Below are positions 3,467 to 33,706 of a stretch of 64,000 nucleotides of DNA, in pieces. The stretch lies in sequence record MN106245.1. One strand, given 5' to 3'. A program made the position numbers and the translations under genes. Under the pieces are notes generated by a model. That model was not told where the DNA came from and ran no database searches. It saw only the letters and a list, made by a program, of their open reading frames with translations. This DNA comes from Klebsiella phage EI. Numbering within the stretch: position 1 is the stretch's first letter; each line of letters opens with the position of its first letter.

Positions 3467-4273
3467 TTATTCCAACATCAAGAGCGGACCGGTGAACAAA
3501 ACACGTCCATTTCTAGATTCTTGGACATCGACTTCAGGGTACTCTTCTAGCATTTTAGCCAGAGTATACCGATGCAGGTAATAATCACTGTCAGGGTCGT
3601 CGAGTTTCCAATCTTTGCCCTCAACAGTCATTCGCTGGATTTCATCCATTACCCACCATCCACACCGGATATAGGCTGTTCCACGGAACGGTAGAGGATG
3701 AATATATGGAAGTTCTCCGTCTGGCTCAGGGGCTACTCTTTTAGTAAAAGCAACAGCAATACCTTTAGTCGCGGTTCCATTATTATAATCCGGCGCAGAA
3801 ACCTTTACTTCACAATTAAGTGTGTAGCTAGTTTCCGCTGATTCAGTTAAGGTAATTGTTTTACCTGTTTGGCCTGCAATAACAGTAGTACCACGTTTCC
3901 ACACGTAAGCAATGCTTGCTCCAGCCGGCGCCCCGCTAACATCCGCTGTAACTACTTGAGATTGGCCAATTTCTTTAGAAACTGAAGTTGGGCTCAAAGT
4001 TAAAGTAATAGCAGGCATGGTTTTGTTCTTAACCGTCAGAGTAGTTTCTGCTTCGGCCGTTTCAGGATCGCCTTCAGCCGGAGTGACGGTAGCAACTACT
4101 TTAATAGTCTTACTACCTGCAGGTCCTGCAGCAACATACTTCATAGCTGCAGTAACAGAAGATTGCTTTACACCATTTACAGTCCACACAAATGATTCTG
4201 TACCTTCGACAGCAGCACCAGACGTGGTTGCAGTAAAATTAGTTGTGGCCCCAATGACTGCTGAAGCAGCCAA
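3467..4273 (-). CDS. hoc: Highly immunogenic outer capsid protein
   Basis: Thr/Ala/Val-rich Ig-like repeats followed by a C-terminal capsid-binding module. Position matches T4 hoc between rnlB and inh. Confidence 0.75.
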   Translation of the reverse strand: MAASAVIGATTNFTATTSGAAVEGTESFVWTVNGVKQSSVTAAMKYVAAGPAGSKTIKVVATVTPAEGDPETAEAETTLTVKNKTMPAITLTLSPTSVSKEIGQSQVVTADVSGAPAGASIAYVWKRGTTVIAGQTGKTITLTESAETSYTLNCEVKVSAPDYNNGTATKGIAVAFTKRVAPEPDGELPYIHPLPFRGTAYIRCGWWVMDEIQRMTVEGKDWKLDDPDSDYYLHRYTLAKMLEEYPEVDVQESRNGRVLFTGPLLMLE

Positions 4274-21202: not shown

Positions 21203-21379
21203 TCAATTAACCGATAAAGGTCCAATGAGTTAAATCAATAAGACCTTTAGCTTTCATTTTTTCAATCAGGTCATCAGCCACTTGACGACCGTTTTTGTAA
21301 TACGTTACATCTTCTGAGTAACCGTCTTCATCTTCGTAAGTCACGGAAATGATTTTACCAACAACAATGGTTTTCAAAA

Positions 21380-21571
21380 CTACTCTTCACCAGTGAAGAA
21401 ATTAGTCAAACGAATTTTCCATGAGAAATCATCTGAAGGGCCTTCAGGAGTCATACAGTAAACCAGTTCGAATTGCTCTTTGCTAAGCATCCACTGGGCT
21501 TCGTGAACTACTTGGGCTTTATAGCCGTCATGGTCTTTACACTTAACAGTAGCATTCAGATTGATTTTCAT
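21380..21571 (-). CDS. Hypothetical protein
   Basis: 63-aa ORF. Confidence 0.4.
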   Translation of the reverse strand: MKINLNATVKCKDHDGYKAQVVHEAQWMLSKEQFELVYCMTPEGPSDDFSWKIRLTNFFTGEE

Positions 21572-21675: not shown

Positions 21676-21858
21676 TTATGCCTTCGGCTTACCAAAACGA
21701 GAAGCATCATCGCGAAGAACCGCACGAGCCCGACGCATGATTTTCTCAACCGTCTGATTGATACGCTTGTTCGACGCACGCTTGTAGCCAGCGCGTTTAG
21801 AGGTACCAACAACTTCTTTTACTGCAGTTTTTGCTTTTGCTTTTGCTTGTTTAGCCAT
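21676..21858 (-). CDS. Small basic Lys/Ala-rich protein (30.9-like)
   Basis: Trimmed to the ATG GCT start (MAKQAKAKAKTAVKEV...) with GGAAGA upstream. Confidence 0.45.
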   Translation of the reverse strand: MAKQAKAKAKTAVKEVVGTSKRAGYKRASNKRINQTVEKIMRRARAVLRDDASRFGKPKA

Positions 21859-22227
21859 TATAAAGTCTTCCATTTTGGAGAAATACATGGGAGCACGTTC
21901 TTCCGAGGTTCAACTTCTTTCGACAGTTCTTTCGGTTGTAGCTCCCGCAAGCCCTCAAGGGGCAACGTTTAAACTCTTATCTGTTGCACACCGTTAGCTT
22001 AAAGGTTCCGGGTCCGATTTATCGGGGATAAGATATACACCGATGGATGTATAGGCCTTGAGGCGTACTCCCGATTGGCCATCGCCTCGGGGTAGCATGC
22101 ACTTGCCGTTTATTTTCTAGCTGCACTTTGGTAGCAAATCACCGTTGGTTTCGGGTGTTTTACGTGGGGATAACCAACAACGTCCACATCATACGTTACC
22201 CATGCGTACACATGGTGGGCGTACAAA

Positions 22228-23299: not shown

Positions 23300-23631
23300 A
23301 CTTCTACCTTAATAAAGTTAAAGCGAACAGTGTATGCAGGTTTACCTTCAATTTCAGTAAAGTCTTTTACTTCACGTAGATAAACTACATCCGGATTAAA
23401 TTTCACGATCTCAGAAACCAGGTGATCCAGATCCTGGGCCTTGAAAGATGCAATATCAACTTTGTAACGCTCACCACGTTTTATAGTTTGTACAGAAAAC
23501 GAAGGAGCGCCGATAACAATTACATTAATACCAGCGGCTTTAAGCATAGATGCAAATTCTTCAGTTGCATCCACAGGCTCTGGCATGGGCGGATTAATAT
23601 TTACGACAGAGTCGAATTCGTTAAGATTCAT
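23296..23631 (-). CDS. Hypothetical protein (31.2-like)
   Basis: 111-aa ORF; ATGA coupling to cd. Confidence 0.4.
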   Translation of the reverse strand: MNLNEFDSVVNINPPMPEPVDATEEFASMLKAAGINVIVIGAPSFSVQTIKRGERYKVDIASFKAQDLDHLVSEIVKFNPDVVYLREVKDFTEIEGKPAYTVRFNFIKVEV

Positions 23632-24191
23632 TATTCACCACAAAAATTACGAATCTGTTCCCAGTTCAGAGAGTTAAGATTCTTACGGTTATATTCAATA
23701 ACTTCAATTCCGGCTTCAACTAGAATATCGGCCCAGTCATCAGGAGAGCGATCATAGCGCTCTGCATAAACAACTTTTTTAATACCTGACTGAGAAATAG
23801 CTTTAGTACAATCAGGGCAAGGAGACGCGGTGCAATACAGCGTAGAGCCTTCAATTGAAGAACCTTTACGGGCCGCGAACAAAATAGCGTTCAGTTCGGC
23901 ATGGATTTCATTTTTAGAAGACCATTCACTATGTGCAGGTCTGTGTTCTTTAGCCAAAACCACTCGGCCACCTTTACCTGAAATTCGCCCAGACCCAGAA
24001 TTAGGAATAAACCTGGTCCAACCTTGCTGTGCAGCATGGTCACAACAGTTAGTTCCACCAGCCGGAGAACCGTTATACCCTGTAGAAATGATGCGACCAT
24101 CTTTTTCGATAACCGCACCTACTTTCCAAGAGCAACACTTTGATTCTTGGGAAATCAGATACGCGATTTGAAGATACGTAGCAGCCCTCAT
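23631..24191 (-). CDS. cd: dCMP deaminase
   Basis: Cytidine/dCMP deaminase zinc motifs H(A)E...PCxxC (HAELNAILFAA, SPCPDCTKAI) and an allosteric-site region. 186 aa. Confidence 0.9.
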   Translation of the reverse strand: MRAATYLQIAYLISQESKCCSWKVGAVIEKDGRIISTGYNGSPAGGTNCCDHAAQQGWTRFIPNSGSGRISGKGGRVVLAKEHRPAHSEWSSKNEIHAELNAILFAARKGSSIEGSTLYCTASPCPDCTKAISQSGIKKVVYAERYDRSPDDWADILVEAGIEVIEYNRKNLNSLNWEQIRNFCGE

Positions 24192-24194
24192 TTT

Positions 24195-24416
24195 TTATTT
24201 CCTCAGTTTACAATTATCATAGTGCCATCGAACGGCAGTAGCTTTATTACATATTTTACCACAATGCGGGCAAGGAGGAACTTTAGCTTTAGGAACACCT
24301 TTTAATTTTTCAGAGATGGCAGCTTTTTGACTCTCAGAATTCGGTATTCCTGTCCGTGTAGCACATTTGGCTCTAAGAACTGGATTCTTCATTCTATCTC
24401 TTTGAGCTTTTGCCAT
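24195..24416 (-). CDS. NUMOD3 + Cys4 zinc-finger DNA-binding module (C-terminal part of the adjacent HNH homing endonuclease, separate frame)
   Basis: Contains NUMOD3-like repeats (GIPNSESQKAAISEKLKG) and CPHCGK...WHYDNCK. The same finger type appears at the C-terminus of the nrdB-intron endonuclease. Confidence 0.55.
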   Translation of the reverse strand: MAKAQRDRMKNPVLRAKCATRTGIPNSESQKAAISEKLKGVPKAKVPPCPHCGKICNKATAVRWHYDNCKLRK

Positions 24417-24451
24417 TTTGGCTTTAGTCTCTTCAGAACGAGGAACTCCTT

Positions 24452-24763
24452 TTAATTTTCGGATAAAAGCTTTTTAGCTAAAGTGTAATCTCTAGAAGAG
24501 ACTTTGTATCTTTCAACCCCGTGCTCATTTATCCTAGAATTGCACATCATTAAAAAGGCATAAATCATCGGCCCTTCATAAATTTTAGCTAATAATTTGT
24601 GAGCTAAAAAGTGTTCTCTTCCTGTTAAATCGACTATGTTGGATTTGTCGTCAGAACCTCCCATAGACTTAGGGAGTATATGATGAGATTCTGTATACCC
24701 AGAAACTTCTTTTCTGAGTGAGGCCTTTGCCATTAAGGCCTCATAAGCTTTTCTATAGTCCAT
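24452..24763 (-). CDS. HNH homing endonuclease, catalytic domain
   Basis: ESHHILPKSMGGSDDKSNIVDLTGREHFLAH is an H-N-H motif. It overlaps the DAHP synthase stop by 11 nt. It ends at TAA just after an in-phase AAA-AAG, and the -1 frame continues into the ORF at 24195..24416. Confidence 0.7.
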   Translation of the reverse strand: MDYRKAYEALMAKASLRKEVSGYTESHHILPKSMGGSDDKSNIVDLTGREHFLAHKLLAKIYEGPMIYAFLMMCNSRINEHGVERYKVSSRDYTLAKKLLSEN

Positions 24764-25742
24764 TCAGATTACGGAGAACCATTTCAGTGGTTTCCCAGCC
24801 AATACACGGGTCAGTAATTGACACGCCATATTCAAGGTCTGTAGAAATCTTTTGATTACCTTGTTTAAGATTAGATTCTAACATAATTCCTCGAACGTTA
24901 GCCAATTCTGCTGCTTCAGCACAAACTGCAACCTGGTTCAAGAAAGAACCTTGGGCGTTAGCATGAGAGCAATCAACCATCAAGTATTGGTTAACGCCTG
25001 CCTTCTGTGCCTGGGCGATAGCATCAAAGACTGATTCTTTATCGTAGTTAGTTCCTTCGGAACCGCCACGCAGAACAATATGAGTGCTCTTGTTACCTGG
25101 TGCTGAGACGATACCGACTACACCGTTTTGGTCCATACCCATATAGTGGTGTGGGAACGCAGCCGATTGCATAGCGTCAGTAGCAACCTTAATAGAGCCA
25201 TTTGTCCCGTTCTTAAAACCGACAGTCATTGGCAGACCTGAAGCAATTTCACGATGAGTCTGTGATTCGGTAGTGCGAGCACCGATTGCAACCCAAGAGA
25301 AAATACCAGACAGATATTTGATAGTGAACGGATCAAGAACTTCTGTTGCCAGTGGTAAACCCATTCGCAAAAGCTTGCGACATAAGGTGCGAGCAATACC
25401 CAGCCCAGTATTAATTTCAAATGAACCATCTAAGAACGGGTCATTGATAAGACCTTTCCAACCGACAGTTGTACGAGGTTTTTCAAAATAAACACGCATA
25501 CAAAGCAGAAGATTAGGAAGTTCTTTTTGGAGTTCAGCCAGGCGCTCGCCATAATCAACTGCAGCAACTACGTCATGGATTGAACAAGGCCCTACTACAA
25601 CCAGACGGCGTTTATCGCGCCCAGTCATAATCTTATCGATTTCTTGGCGGTGTAAACTGACTTGATTTTGCAGCTCTGGAGAAATCCTACAACGACGCTC
25701 AAGTTCAGCCGGGCTTATCATTCTTTCAATTAAAGGTCTCAT
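24753..25742 (-). CDS. aroF: 3-deoxy-D-arabino-heptulosonate-7-phosphate (DAHP) synthase, class I-alpha (AroF/AroG-like)
   Basis: Near-collinear with E. coli AroF/AroG (RLLVVVGPCSIHD, MRVYFEKPRTTVGWKGLINDP, AIGARTTESQTHRE.ASGL, VGFKNGT.G, IVLRGG, DCSHANA, DPCIGWE). Good AAGGAA RBS. Confidence 0.9.
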   Translation of the reverse strand: MRPLIERMISPAELERRCRISPELQNQVSLHRQEIDKIMTGRDKRRLVVVGPCSIHDVVAAVDYGERLAELQKELPNLLLCMRVYFEKPRTTVGWKGLINDPFLDGSFEINTGLGIARTLCRKLLRMGLPLATEVLDPFTIKYLSGIFSWVAIGARTTESQTHREIASGLPMTVGFKNGTNGSIKVATDAMQSAAFPHHYMGMDQNGVVGIVSAPGNKSTHIVLRGGSEGTNYDKESVFDAIAQAQKAGVNQYLMVDCSHANAQGSFLNQVAVCAEAAELANVRGIMLESNLKQGNQKISTDLEYGVSITDPCIGWETTEMVLRNLNGL

Positions 25743-25771
25743 ATGGTTCCTTACTTACATTATTCTCCAGT

Positions 25772-25787
25772 AAGAGCCGAAGCCCTT
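25772..25787 (-). terminator. UUCG tetraloop hairpin (with G-U wobble) upstream of aroF
   Basis: The minus strand reads AAGGGC-UUCG-GCUCUU. Confidence 0.4.
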
Positions 25788-26022
25788 AGAAAGCATATAC
25801 TGAGGTAGATTGAATATGACTATTAGGCAATAGCTCAATCAAGTAGTACTCTGACTTGAAACCTTTAACGGTAAATAGATAAGACGCAGGTGTTTCCTGC
25901 GTCACATTTAGCTTTGCGCTTGGGTTACGTTCAGATATCTTATTAATCAAAGATTGAGCAAACTTAGGAATTAGCTCGGCAAACTCTGAAGTTGTGAAGG
26001 TCTTATCACTGTACATAAACAT
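25786..26022 (-). CDS. Hypothetical protein (cd.x-like)
   Basis: 78-aa ORF. Confidence 0.35.
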   Translation of the reverse strand: MFMYSDKTFTTSEFAELIPKFAQSLINKISERNPSAKLNVTQETPASYLFTVKGFKSEYYLIELLPNSHIQSTSVYAF

Positions 26023-26284
26023 TAACCTCTTGGGTGCCGAAAATGCCTGTTACTTCAACAGTGAATCCACCACCGCCTTCAAAGACAATTTCGACAACTG
26101 CCTGAAGGCCAATGCTATTTACTTCGAGAGATACTTTACCATGATTTGGAATAAGCGTATTAATAGCACTTGTGAAATCCGCGTGCATTTTAGCTTTCAA
26201 GGAGTTGTCAAGAGTATCAGCACAGTAATTACCAACAATCTGCAATGCAACTACTTTAACTACTTCAGAATATTTAGGGAACAT
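26006..26284 (-). CDS. Hypothetical protein (cd.x-like)
   Basis: 92-aa ORF. Confidence 0.4.
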   Translation of the reverse strand: MFPKYSEVVKVVALQIVGNYCADTLDNSLKAKMHADFTSAINTLIPNHGKVSLEVNSIGLQAVVEIVFEGGGGFTVEVTGIFGTQEVNVYVQ

Positions 26285-26293
26285 AGCTTTTCC

Positions 26294-26509
26294 TTAATGA
26301 ACGGTGTGTACTTTAACATTAACAACGAAATGCGTATTAACATTAGAAAGAGGTAAAAACTCAACGTGGTACTCATCTTTGTAACGAGTGTTCAGGTCTG
26401 TACGAATACGCGCCAGTTCATTAATCAAAGCTGGGGTCACGCCCATTCCAACACATTTCCGAAGCATTTTGTAAGCTTCTTCTTCAACTTCATGATGCTT
26501 ATTGTACAT
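26294..26509 (-). CDS. Hypothetical protein (cd.x-like)
   Basis: 71-aa ORF. Confidence 0.4.
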   Translation of the reverse strand: MYNKHHEVEEEAYKMLRKCVGMGVTPALINELARIRTDLNTRYKDEYHVEFLPLSNVNTHFVVNVKVHTVH

Positions 26510-26667
26510 ATCATTTTCCTCAAGTACAAGTAGACTGGAAGTACATCATATCATGCCTTCCAGCCGTTGTAAACAGCTAGAAATCTTTCCACTTTCGGCC
26601 TTGCTGCCAGTCTGGGTGATTCAATCTTGGGTCATTAGGATCTGTGGTAGAAGACTTCTCTCCGGTT

Positions 26668-27262
26668 CTAGAAATGAGCCATTTTTCTAGATTTAGCAAT
26701 TTCAGAATATTTCTTTTTAGCTTCATCAGTTCTTATTTTACCTGTGTTGGCTTCAGAGATTCTAGCGCTCCACTGCTTAATAGCAGATTCACTCATAAAA
26801 TCTTTTACATTTTTACCGAACATAGGGTTAGAAGAACCTTCAAAGGACCCACCTCGTTCTAATCTAGTATCTCTGGATTTTAGCCCATGCCCCGGAAGTT
26901 TTTTACCTTTTATCCAGGGTTCTGCACCTGAAGCGTATCGAGCCCTTTTGGCTTTTTGATATTTTACGAGAAGTTTCTTCACTAGAATTGTTGTTAAGCC
27001 CGTTATCGTTAATAAAATCCCAGCCGCCTTCTCCACCAGGCTTTAAGTTGTAGTTAGTATCTAAGCTAACAAACTGCTCGGTTACTAAGTCTTTTTCAAG
27101 AGAATAAGCTTCTTCTTTCGTATCGAAGATTGCTAAAATCTCTTTAACAAAGGAAGATTTACCGTACTTGGCTTCAGCATTCTTAAATGCTGTCCCAGAC
27201 CCTAAATAAGAATCGTTCTCTTCTAATGTCTTGTGAACACCGATGTAAATTTTGTTATTCAC
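26668..27262 (-). pseudogene. GIY-YIG (Seg-like) homing endonuclease split into two overlapping frames
   Basis: The N-terminal ORF (27262..26903) has GIY-YIG-like KIYIGVH...YLGSG and a NUMOD3 motif (SSEETSRKISKSQKG). The C-terminal ORF (27036..26668) is in the +1 frame and carries further NUMOD-like repeats (NPMFGKN, SESAIKQWSARISEANTGK). The overlap runs through A5/A4/G3 homopolymers. Confidence 0.55.
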
Positions 27263-27353
27263 AAAGACATGTTGTTTTATATACCGTATGTTTTTCCATA
27301 AACACCTCTAATGTTATAAAGGTATTTATTAAGTAAACTACGGTGATTTCTAA

Positions 27354-28268
<915 letters not shown>

Positions 28269-31473: not shown

Positions 31474-31976
31474 TTATAAAGATTTGCGAATTCTGGCCAG
31501 TACTTCAGAATCCACATCGTTATCGATTTGGGCTACAAGATAAGAAGAGATTTCTACTTCTTGTGGGGCAGATTGTACTGTATCACTATTTAAGTATTCG
31601 CGAATCCATGGAATAGGATGGTGAGTACTTTCAAGAATGATAGAGCACGGCAGCCCGACAGCCTTCATACGAGAAACAGTAAGATAATCAATAAACTTGT
31701 GTAAGATCTCAACATTAAGCCCTGGAAGACCGCCAGCACGGAAAAGATGGATGGCCCAGTCTTTTTCCTGCTGATTAACTTCCATGAAGATACGAACAGC
31801 TTCTTCTTCGCATTCTTTTGCTACTTGGACCCATTCGTCGCCATCAGTACCAAGTTGCCATTGACGAATCTGGTACTGGGTTCCTTTAAGATGGAGCTGT
31901 TCATCACGAGCGATGAACTTCATAATCTTAGCATTGCCTTCCATGATTTCCATATTCTTATGGAAATTGAATGTAC
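31474..31976 (-). CDS. nrdB: Ribonucleotide reductase small subunit NrdB, exon 2
   Basis: Joins to exon 1 to give ...[35 protein letters not shown]... (compare E. coli ...FACSFAFAERELMEGNAKI...). The intron ends in G before GTACATTC. Confidence 0.8.
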
Positions 31977-33066
31977 CGTTATGTTCGATTGAGCTCGCTA
32001 ATTCTCAACCCGTTCTCTTATGAACTGCTGCATATTACTATGCAGACCAGACTATATCACAATCCCGGAGGGATTCTCCCCATTTCGAGTCGCTTGACCC
32101 TACGTCCGAAGACTAGTCGTTGAACCTTGTTTTGCAATTGTCGCCGTGCCATCGTTTATATGTTGATGGTGATAAATCTTTCTTATCACAGTATGGACAA
32201 TTCAATTGAATTCTATTTGGATTTAATTTACATCTGTCATTATGTTTTAGATAAAACCCAGGACCTTTACCAATGTGACCACAAAAATCACATGTGATTT
32301 CTTTTTGTGCAGGATGGGTCCAGTTCTTAACCATTTCTAATGTTTTTGCTGATGTTCTTTTCTTATGGTCTTCTGATAAGAAATGATGTGAACCGTCATT
32401 TACCCGTTTTGATTGGGTTTCTGACTGCATTTTACCACCGCAAAATACATGGGTACCTTCTTTTATAGCTGCAATATTACGTTCTTTAACTTTTGCAATA
32501 TGCTCAGCTTGTTGAAAATTATGTATACCTAATGCAACTCTATTTAAATTAGATTTACGCTGTATTTCACCATCTAAAAGATGAAATGTACCATTTTCTA
32601 TCTTAGATTTAATAGAGGCAATATTTTTAGCTCGTACTTCAGGGATATTAAAAATCTGAATTTCTCTAGATTTTGCGGCTTTAGAAGCTAATTCAGAAAT
32701 TTCTTCAGGAGAATATTTCATTCTAAGCTTTATAGCATGACAAGCCTGGTAATCTTTTTGAGCTAAATGTATATCATAATGTTCCTGTATAGAAAGGCAC
32801 ATCAAATTATCTAAATCATTATTTTCACGGTTACCGTCTTTATGATGGATTTCGTATGTTCTTCCATCAGAATCTTTAGGTATAGGTCCGTTAGCATCTA
32901 TCCAAATTTTTCTATAGTTTCAATTGTGCATCCTCTTAAAAGCATAATCATTTTATATTATACTAATTAAAGGTGCAAGCAAAACCTTGGCTGCTAGTTT
33001 TCCATAAAGGACTTTCCAGCAATTAAAGGAGTTTTCGATAAACGTTACCGTTTAAAGGCGCATTTT
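31977..33066 (-). other. Group I self-splicing intron in nrdB (~1090 nt) carrying an HNH homing-endonuclease ORF
   Basis: The reading frame breaks at an exon-terminal U. The 5' end reads TAAAATGCGCCTTTAAACGGTAACG... The 3' region (31985..32110) shares structured core/3'-end motifs with the td intron. The last nucleotide is G. Confidence 0.8.
32113..32931 (-). pseudogene. I-TevIII-like HNH homing endonuclease (intron ORF) with an in-frame TGA at codon 4
   Basis: Frame reads ATG CAC AAT TGA then NYRKIWIDANGPIPKDSDGRTYEIHHKDGNRENNDLDNL(M)CLSIQEHYDIH..., ending in two Cys4 fingers. The ORF-track ORF (32113..32805) starts only after the HNH His-His. Confidence 0.6.
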
Positions 33067-33706
33067 ACGCAAAAGATACATAAAAACGAATAGCTTCAAG
33101 AGCGTTCACTACATGCATGCAAAGGTACATTGCCTTCATCAGGTCATGCTTGGCTTGTTTAATCTCAATATTATCCGGATTAAAGCAACGTTCTTGAGCA
33201 TTCTGGTACCGACGATGGGCTTCAGTAACCGCATCATAGTAAACACCGATTGATTCAGCCCGTTTCATGATGGCTTTGTCGAGAACAATTTCGTCGAAGA
33301 CCTTAGCCGGATCAGTGAATAAGTTACGCATAATATGCGTATAAGAACGAGAGTGAATTGTTTCACTGAATGTCCAGGTCTGGAACCAAGTATCAAGGCT
33401 CGGATCAGAAATCAACGGGGCAAATACTGCTGAAGGGGCACGGCCTTGAATCGAATCGAGAAGACTTTGATACTTCAGGTTATCTGTAAACAGGTTCTGT
33501 TGGTGCTCTGGCAGCTTTTCAAATTGCCCACGGTCCATCATTAGGTTGACTTCTTCCGGACGCCAAAAGAATGACAGCTGCTTTTCAATAAGGTCTTCAA
33601 AAACTTTATGTCGCTGCTGATCATATCGTGCAATGCCTAGTCCTGAACCAAGGAACATCGGTTCGGTCATGATATCTACTTGCTTGGTGTTAAAAACTGT
33701 TGTCAT
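33067..33706 (-). CDS. nrdB: Ribonucleotide reductase small subunit NrdB, exon 1
   Basis: N-terminal di-iron R2 region (…FWRPEEV…, TFSETIHSRSYTHI…, AIRFYVSFA). Its 'stop' TAA is the intron start. Confidence 0.85.

Follow-up and report, generated by a model that had tools for sequence, protein, structure and literature searches.

The window analysed here, a stretch of 64,000 nucleotides (nt) of Klebsiella phage EI (MN106245.1), belongs to a T4-like phage of the Marfavirus group and is ~95% identical to Marfa, F48, Biddle_MM4 and PWKp16. Between cd (dCMP deaminase) and pseT (polynucleotide kinase/phosphatase) it carries two frameshifted homing endonuclease genes (HEGs), one MobE-like with an HNH motif and one a Seg-like GIY-YIG pseudogene, on either side of a block that consists of aroF, encoding a DAHP synthase, and three small open reading frames (ORFs). 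All genes between 23.6 and 28.3 kb lie on the minus strand, in the order cd (23631–24191, intact; dCMP_cyt_deam_1, 1.5e-26), the HNH gene (24195–24763), aroF (24753–25742), a cd.2-like ORF (DUF7320, 25786–26022), a cd.3-like ORF (DUF7355, 26006–26284), an ORF of 71 amino acids (aa; phrog_3609, 26294–26509), the seg gene (26577–27299) and pseT (27354–28256, intact). The three small ORFs occur in the identical order in HEG-free relatives, and the PEi20 record annotates cd.2 and cd.3.

A preliminary description of this interval, made from the sequence of the window, had reported this gene content and order with both HEGs broken, and our alignments agree, including on the HNH gene at 24195–24763, which is split into two ORFs by one deleted base. 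What needs correcting is the seg gene: it is indeed frame-broken, but the span first given (26668–27262) covers its two middle fragments only, and it contains three insertions instead of one. Both genes are, as described, of the homing endonuclease type and are present in some relatives and absent from others; alignment against T4-like relatives mapped the presence/absence breakpoints, and polymorphism was found at both endonuclease boundaries.

An HNH gene at the junction of aroF and cd

The HNH gene survives as two ORFs of 103 aa (24452–24763) and 73 aa (24195–24416), and base-by-base alignment with the intact copy of Biddle_MM4 places the cause of the split in a 1-nt deletion near 24456–24459 that reduces a run of five A to four. 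Intact copies are found in Biddle_MM4, MY02 and P545 with 99.3–99.6% nucleotide identity to the window copy (98–99.5% for the proteins), the difference from Biddle_MM4 amounting to three substitutions and the one lost A. The N-terminal ORF retains the HNH motif (ESHHILPKSMGGSDDKSNIVDLTGREHFLAH) and the C-terminal ORF retains NUMOD3-like repeats together with a CxxC...H...C finger. When repaired, the protein matches the 'homing endonuclease' family phrog_655 (1.2e-54) and is 46% identical to T4 MobE over the full length. As its Pfam HNH match is weak (18–20 bits against a cut-off of 21.4), and the NUMOD3 match is weak too, the family assignment draws mainly on PHROGs and on the identity to MobE.

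The gene is inserted exactly at the junction between the aroF stop and the cd start, which is clean in genomes without it. Because its ATG overlaps the final codons of aroF, the AroF C-terminus changes from ...NLNNKG* to ...NLNGL*, which is the sole effect on aroF. Of the 24 Klebsiella records with a match to the interval, 3 (Biddle_MM4, MY02 and P545) share the gene with the window, and Marfa, F48 and the remaining Marfavirus records that were inspected lack it. All four HNH-positive Marfavirus genomes share, on any backbone, an identical haplotype at 24151–24194 (minus strand), comprising the 5′ end of cd and the 3-nt spacer, in which cd starts ATG AGG GCT GCT ACG (MRAAT) as opposed to the widely conserved ATG AAA GCT AGC AC (MKAST). 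Taken together, the inserted HNH gene and the initial 44 nt of cd are 99.3–100% identical in the four genomes, whereas between their two backbones the cd bodies are only 90.6–91.9% and cd.2–cd.3 only 82–84% identical. Such near-identity on divergent backbones is what recent homing leaves behind, together with a short flanking tract that was co-converted or gives immunity. The mobility and co-conversion proposed in the preliminary description are therefore supported for the HNH gene, whose insert appears to have spread recently with 44 nt of cd, and the part of the proposal that concerned cargo fails, as set out below.

Genes for homologues of the HNH protein (66% and 60% aa identity) immediately precede cd in Providencia phage PSTRCR_121, in the order aroF, HNH, cd, and in the Klebsiella Jiaodavirus ATCCa, where the homologue adjoins cd although there is no aroF at the site. 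In six HNH-free genomes, taken from four genera, cd begins ATGAAAGCTAGCAC, and in all six HNH-positive genomes (three genera) cd codons 2–5 deviate from this sequence. As judged from these arrangements, the HNH gene tracks cd and not aroF, and cd is the conserved gene to which this HNH lineage attaches in three genera, with 24151–24194 as a candidate co-conversion tract or immunity polymorphism and also a candidate target site. A co-conversion tract towards aroF was considered and rejected, since a site at 24807 that was HNH-specific among 6 genomes ceased to be so among 11.

In a subgroup formed by Marfa, HMGUkp2 and Clarke, which has no HNH gene, cd starts with ATGAAAGCATCTACC, a synonymous variant of ATGAAAGCTAGCAC. 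Such a start might be a resistance allele, or else the scar of an earlier HNH loss.

A Seg-like gene at the 3′ end of pseT

The seg gene runs from an ATG at 27299 to a stop at 26577 (723 nt), and comparison with the intact 239-aa genes of Enterobacter phages reveals three +1 insertions, at ~27265, 26945 and 26686, that divide it into four frame segments. With these three bases removed it reads through with zero internal stops; the reconstructed 239-aa protein is 89% identical to that of EnC07, the genes being 83% identical in nucleotide sequence. The reconstruction matches Pfam GIY-YIG with 31.4 bits (cut-off 22.6) and phrog_314 with 8e-44, and the motifs VYK...IYIG and NYNLKPGG and the glutamate in EEAYSLE were read by eye, with no formal alignment. 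Differences from EnC07 fall on codon positions 1, 2 and 3 in the proportion 25/11/85, and the codon changes comprise 78 synonymous and 27 non-synonymous ones. This third-position bias suggests that the gene was under purifying selection until very recently.

Such a gene lies directly 3′ of the pseT stop in the window, in Karamvirus (EnC07, KMB20 and vB_Ent31) and in Mosigvirus (WFbE185, P896 and PNJ-9), and is absent from HX01, a congener of WFbE185. None of the 24 Klebsiella records matching the interval has it; in all other Marfavirus genomes an ORF of 87–97 aa (phrog_35148) is found there. The 97-aa form of this ORF was considered as a seg remnant and rejected, as it has no Pfam match and belongs to a PHROG of its own, of unknown function. 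The pseT-attached Seg lineage as a whole was found in only 12 phage records, at 60–89% identity. Read at the sequence level in one genome per genus (the window, EnC07 and WFbE185), the junction is common to all three, with GACTTTTAG at the pseT end followed by TTAGAAATC. The substitutions linked to seg are concentrated in the final ~20 nt of pseT, and upstream of these pseT follows the local backbone, which in the window is Marfavirus-like. In the breakpoint alignment the full cassette, that is, the part non-homologous to other Marfavirus genomes, extends from 26575 to ~27362 (minus strand); its slot reaches from the pseT stop to a conserved promoter, and the cassette ends exactly at this promoter (26545–26573). 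Seg tracks pseT, the conserved gene to which this Seg lineage attaches. The last 9 nt of seg (GATTTCTAG) resemble the pseT 3′ end (GATTTCTAA) of PEi20, which has no seg, and may represent a duplicated pseT end.

aroF in genomes with and without endonuclease genes

The aroF product (329 aa, intact) matches Pfam DAHP_synth_1 (4.4e-76) over profile positions 8–269 of 270 and E. coli AroF (6AGM) with 3e-98, and GPCSIHD, KPRTTVGW, DCSH and ITD are conserved in the alignment, by which criteria we assign it as a full-length type I-alpha DAHP synthase (AroF/G/H) with conserved active-site motifs. The preliminary description had taken the two flanking HEGs as a sign that this gene was acquired, or is being swept, by endonuclease-mediated recombination, and this is where it parts from the data. 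In every Marfavirus record examined aroF adjoins cd, whether or not the HNH gene is present, and the two are direct neighbours in Marfa, F48, HMGUkp2, Clarke, PWKp16, pzk-kv8 and PhiKpNIH-6, all of which are without both endonucleases. The order cd–aroF–cd.x–pseT is likewise found in Kanagawavirus (PEi20 and CIP9), Mosigvirus (HX01 and WFbE185) and Gualtarvirus (PSTRCR_121). Homologues of AroF were detected by tblastn in 212 phage records, most of them with 60–80% aa identity; the values are 62–67% for several related genera and ~58–59% for Proteus phages. Neither the presence nor the allele of aroF and the cd.x ORFs co-varies with the endonucleases, and the interior genes follow the backbone lineage and not the HNH status. 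As far as the compared sequences tell, aroF is a vertically inherited old resident and not cargo.

Some observations do fit a model in which the endonucleases served as vehicles and the aroF and cd.x block was brought in, or is being swept, by co-conversion. Free-standing endonucleases can mobilise neighbours in trans, as T4 MobE moves the defunct I-TevIII and its intron (PMC2790892), the 3′ third of aroF is 97–99% identical among HNH-positive genomes, and the aroF 3′ end of Biddle_MM4 contains an F48-like stretch. However, the same 3′ identity is common to the HNH-free PWKp16 and NIH6 (1 difference in 150 nt), and HNH-free HMGUkp2 has the same F48-like stretch. Furthermore, the window AroF is identical to that of HEG-free Marfa at 327 of 327 aligned residues, the block has the identical order in every HEG-free relative and other genus examined, and the interior cd.2–cd.3 segment differs between HNH-positive genomes to the extent given above. 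Both window endonucleases are, moreover, presumably inactive, and the two occur together in the window only, in none of the 16 other genomes whose region was inspected. The cargo model is already contradicted by these distribution data, and we consider it highly improbable.

Residue 8 of the phage AroF aligns to residue 17 of the Tyr-sensitive AroF of E. coli, so that ~9 N-terminal residues are missing, and there are small internal gaps. The AroF N-terminus contributes to feedback inhibition, so the phage enzyme might be feedback-insensitive. A literature search on phage DAHP synthases was unproductive, and the gene is unmentioned in the F48 paper.

Frameshifts in the endonuclease genes

To judge if the frameshifts are real we used an alignment of the window to Biddle_MM4 that spans ~46 kb at no less than 91% identity. 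Large conserved genes contain no frame-shifting indels, while five lie within the 2.1 kb of endonuclease sequence and the remainder are intergenic or in small hypothetical ORFs. Of the 853 homopolymer runs of the window (at least 4 bases each), 56 fall in endonuclease sequence, which nevertheless has 5 of the ~10 coding frameshifts, where ~0.6 would be expected (P ~6e-4 by our own Poisson estimate). Essential genes would not escape assembly errors that strike at random, and we are therefore confident in treating the endonuclease frameshifts as real mutations.

If both genes were in truth intact and the four single-base indels of HNH and seg were homopolymer errors of sequencing or assembly, one would expect what is seen in several respects: four of the four indels are in or adjoin short A, T or G runs, seg is otherwise undecayed and its three insertions total +3, several other small ORFs of the window have 1-nt indels relative to Biddle_MM4, and none of the four exact broken protein fragments that we looked up is on record elsewhere. 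Such errors should, however, hit essential genes too, whereas mutations filtered by selection would spare them, and both the clean record of the large conserved genes and the excess in the endonuclease sequence make this explanation unlikely.

A third endonuclease gene of the window is an I-TevIII-like HNH ORF at 32113–32925 (minus strand), which lies between the two halves of nrdB (31474–31953 and 33065–33706) in a group I intron-like arrangement and has 99% protein identity to its Biddle_MM4 counterpart, the 'intron-like DNA endonuclease'. Near 32920 it has one A too many (CAATTGAAACTATAG versus CAATTGAACTATAG), which puts its TTG start out of frame, and a protein begun at the next in-frame start would lack the initial His residues of its HNH motif. 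Rfam gave no intron match at the gathering score.

All three endonuclease genes detected in the window therefore carry 1-nt indels, which, together with the three independent insertions in seg and the position of the window as the only Marfavirus in the data with a pseT-linked seg, would also fit positive selection for the frameshifts: having moved across genera, the Seg nuclease might have cut its new host genome or been toxic, so that inactivated copies were favoured, and the split HNH fragments might still keep a function. We regard this as quite improbable. A single frameshift would suffice for inactivation, small ORFs unrelated to endonucleases are hit as well, and the data do not separate selection from the neutral decay of dispensable genes.

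Among the small ORFs, one hypothetical gene of 122 aa has in the window a 1-nt deletion at 21381 that splits it in two (21207–21377 and 21380–21571, minus strand); Marfa, Biddle_MM4 and others have it whole. Small hypothetical ORFs near 2905, 36744 and 58534 have 1- or 2-nt indels relative to Biddle_MM4, and the split Hoc-like gene at 3498 belongs to Biddle_MM4 and not to the window.

Mosaicism of the region

The closest relative of the window changes every few hundred bases over 22.6–29 kb. A concentration of breakpoints at the endonuclease edges was considered and rejected, as the switches are spread throughout this stretch, which leaves little of the earlier suggestion that the interval is a recombination hotspot marked by its endonucleases. 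By this comparison the region appears mosaic in the way of T4-like accessory regions in general, with nothing special at the endonucleases.

Two unrelated homing endonuclease genes beside their probable target genes

The reading that we favour, with a probability of roughly 80%, is that two unrelated free-standing HEGs were independently inserted beside cd and pseT and have since decayed, and that the aroF block between them is ancestral. Each of the two would have been inserted next to a conserved nucleotide-metabolism gene; cd and pseT would simply happen to border the variable cd.x region, making the flanking of the aroF block a coincidence of separate target genes. The intact HNH enzyme most probably attacks HNH-free genomes with a nick or a cut at the 5′ end of cd, whereupon its gene would be copied in by recombinational repair together with ~20–45 nt of cd; the gene has been spreading recently among Marfavirus lineages. 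For Seg the most likely target is the 3′ end of pseT, and its gene would have entered the window lineage from an unsampled donor, replacing the 97-aa ORF found in other Marfavirus genomes. Slippage-type frameshifts of one base each would then have disabled both, the HNH gene through a single hit and seg through three. As both genes are frameshifted, they would by now have reached the degeneration stage of the homing cycle, as relics that no longer drive conversion, and aroF and the cd.x ORFs would represent ancestral, vertically inherited content.

Several points weigh against this interpretation. The evidence for the target sites consists of linked polymorphisms and conserved adjacency, and the Marfa group, which is without the HNH gene, also departs from the conserved cd start, so that reading the haplotype as an immunity polymorphism is not clean. 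All four HNH and seg frameshifts are in or beside short homopolymer runs, where assembly error is possible, and the 1-nt indels in a few small hypothetical ORFs could likewise mean an error-prone assembly and not decay. Three frameshifts in an otherwise undecayed seg gene are also slightly odd for neutral degeneration. Finally, no donor of the seg cassette came to light: the protein-guided IMG/VR scan gave N-terminal matches only (42–53% identity), and exact junction-sequence scans of viral and metagenome contigs returned nothing.

Comparison with known systems

The closest precedent for the HNH gene is T4 MobE, which lies between nrdA and nrdB; the window gene (46% aa identity) is likewise located between two nucleotide-metabolism genes and in the same orientation. 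According to PMC2790892, MobE is promoterless, is co-transcribed with nrdA and places its nick in the 5′ region of nrdB, the next gene downstream. The window HNH gene similarly has no promoter match of its own, with its start overlapping the end of the upstream gene, and the polymorphisms linked to it fall at the 5′ end of the gene that follows, corresponding to where MobE is described to nick nrdB. In contrast to MobE, its locus is aroF/cd and not nrdA/nrdB, and its target is therefore presumably different. The protein is of ~189 aa, and the window copy is frameshifted between its catalytic and DNA-binding halves.

The window Seg resembles the T4 Seg family (SegA–SegG) in its N-terminal GIY-YIG domain, its C-terminal NUMOD3-like repeats and its free-standing position beside a conserved gene. 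Unlike the T4 proteins, it is only ~33–37% identical to its closest annotated relatives, which are SegB/SegD-like, and belongs to a distinct pseT-attached lineage, and the window copy has three frameshifts. T4 itself has no homing endonuclease between cd and pseT. In its presence/absence polymorphism within genera, the pseT-linked seg is comparable to the marker-exclusion systems treated in PMC2988022 and PMC2330249.

Degeneration of phage endonucleases is discussed in section 16 of PMC2988022, and I-TevIII of T4 is referred to as defunct in PMC2790892. The window agrees with the cycle of invasion, fixation, degeneration and loss, and with I-TevIII, in that inactivated genes are kept in place while intact copies exist in sister genomes. 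It departs from these precedents in that the genes have decayed through point frameshifts alone and show no deletions, and in that all three endonucleases of the 64 kb are hit at once. Similarly, nuclease genes at phage exchange boundaries, as portrayed in PMC10448857, find a parallel in HEGs that edge a variable region and have linked flank haplotypes, but the mosaic breakpoints of the window are spread throughout and are not concentrated at the nucleases.

Taken at the level of these comparisons, HNH and Seg are best described as ordinary free-standing HEGs, one MobE-like and one Seg-like, in decay. For annotation, this corrects the tempting but wrong inference of a metabolic gene delivered by HEGs: the phage DAHP synthase is instead a long-standing syntenic gene of several T4-like genera. 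Two targets are predicted, the start of cd for the MobE-like nuclease and the region of the pseT stop for the Seg-like one, and these could enlarge the small set of characterised free-standing phage endonucleases. More broadly, the locus is a routine case of the homing cycle combined with the pervasive mosaicism of T4-like accessory regions.

A stronger claim would be that these are two undescribed, target-gene-specific homing systems that cross genera in Straboviridae, the MobE-like one acting at the first codons of cd (around ATGAAAGCTAGCAC) and the Seg one at the last codons of pseT. This we hold to be unlikely. Were it true, intact copies would impose marker exclusion on the hyperplastic cd–pseT region, aroF and cd.x alleles would hitch-hike over short distances, and the triple frameshifting might reflect post-transfer selection against self-targeting nucleases in place of neutral decay.

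Other features of the region

Within 23.5–28.4 kb there are zero matches to the T4 late promoter motif TATAAATA, and scans of 20–34.5 kb for tRNAs and Rfam families found nothing. The segment at 21800–22200 has a raised GC content (0.46–0.48) and very short ORFs only, is indel-rich and highly divergent relative to Biddle_MM4, and contains no tRNA or Rfam match. A further presence/absence polymorphism near pseT concerns a 485-nt gene (161 aa, Marfa_238) that is found in Marfa, F48, MY02 and P545 and is missing from Biddle_MM4 and from the window at ~28629, where its slot lies between a 69-aa ORF and an Rz1-like gene.

The promoter at which the seg cassette ends (26545–26573, minus strand; TTTACA, 17 nt, TATGAT, with TG) is the best sigma-70-like promoter of the region and is conserved in Marfa, Biddle, F48 and PEi20. 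It overlaps an inverted repeat, CTGGAAG...CTTCCAG (26530–26560), with the −10 element in the loop; promoter and repeat lie directly upstream of the 71-aa ORF and are kept from Marfavirus to the Kanagawavirus PEi20.

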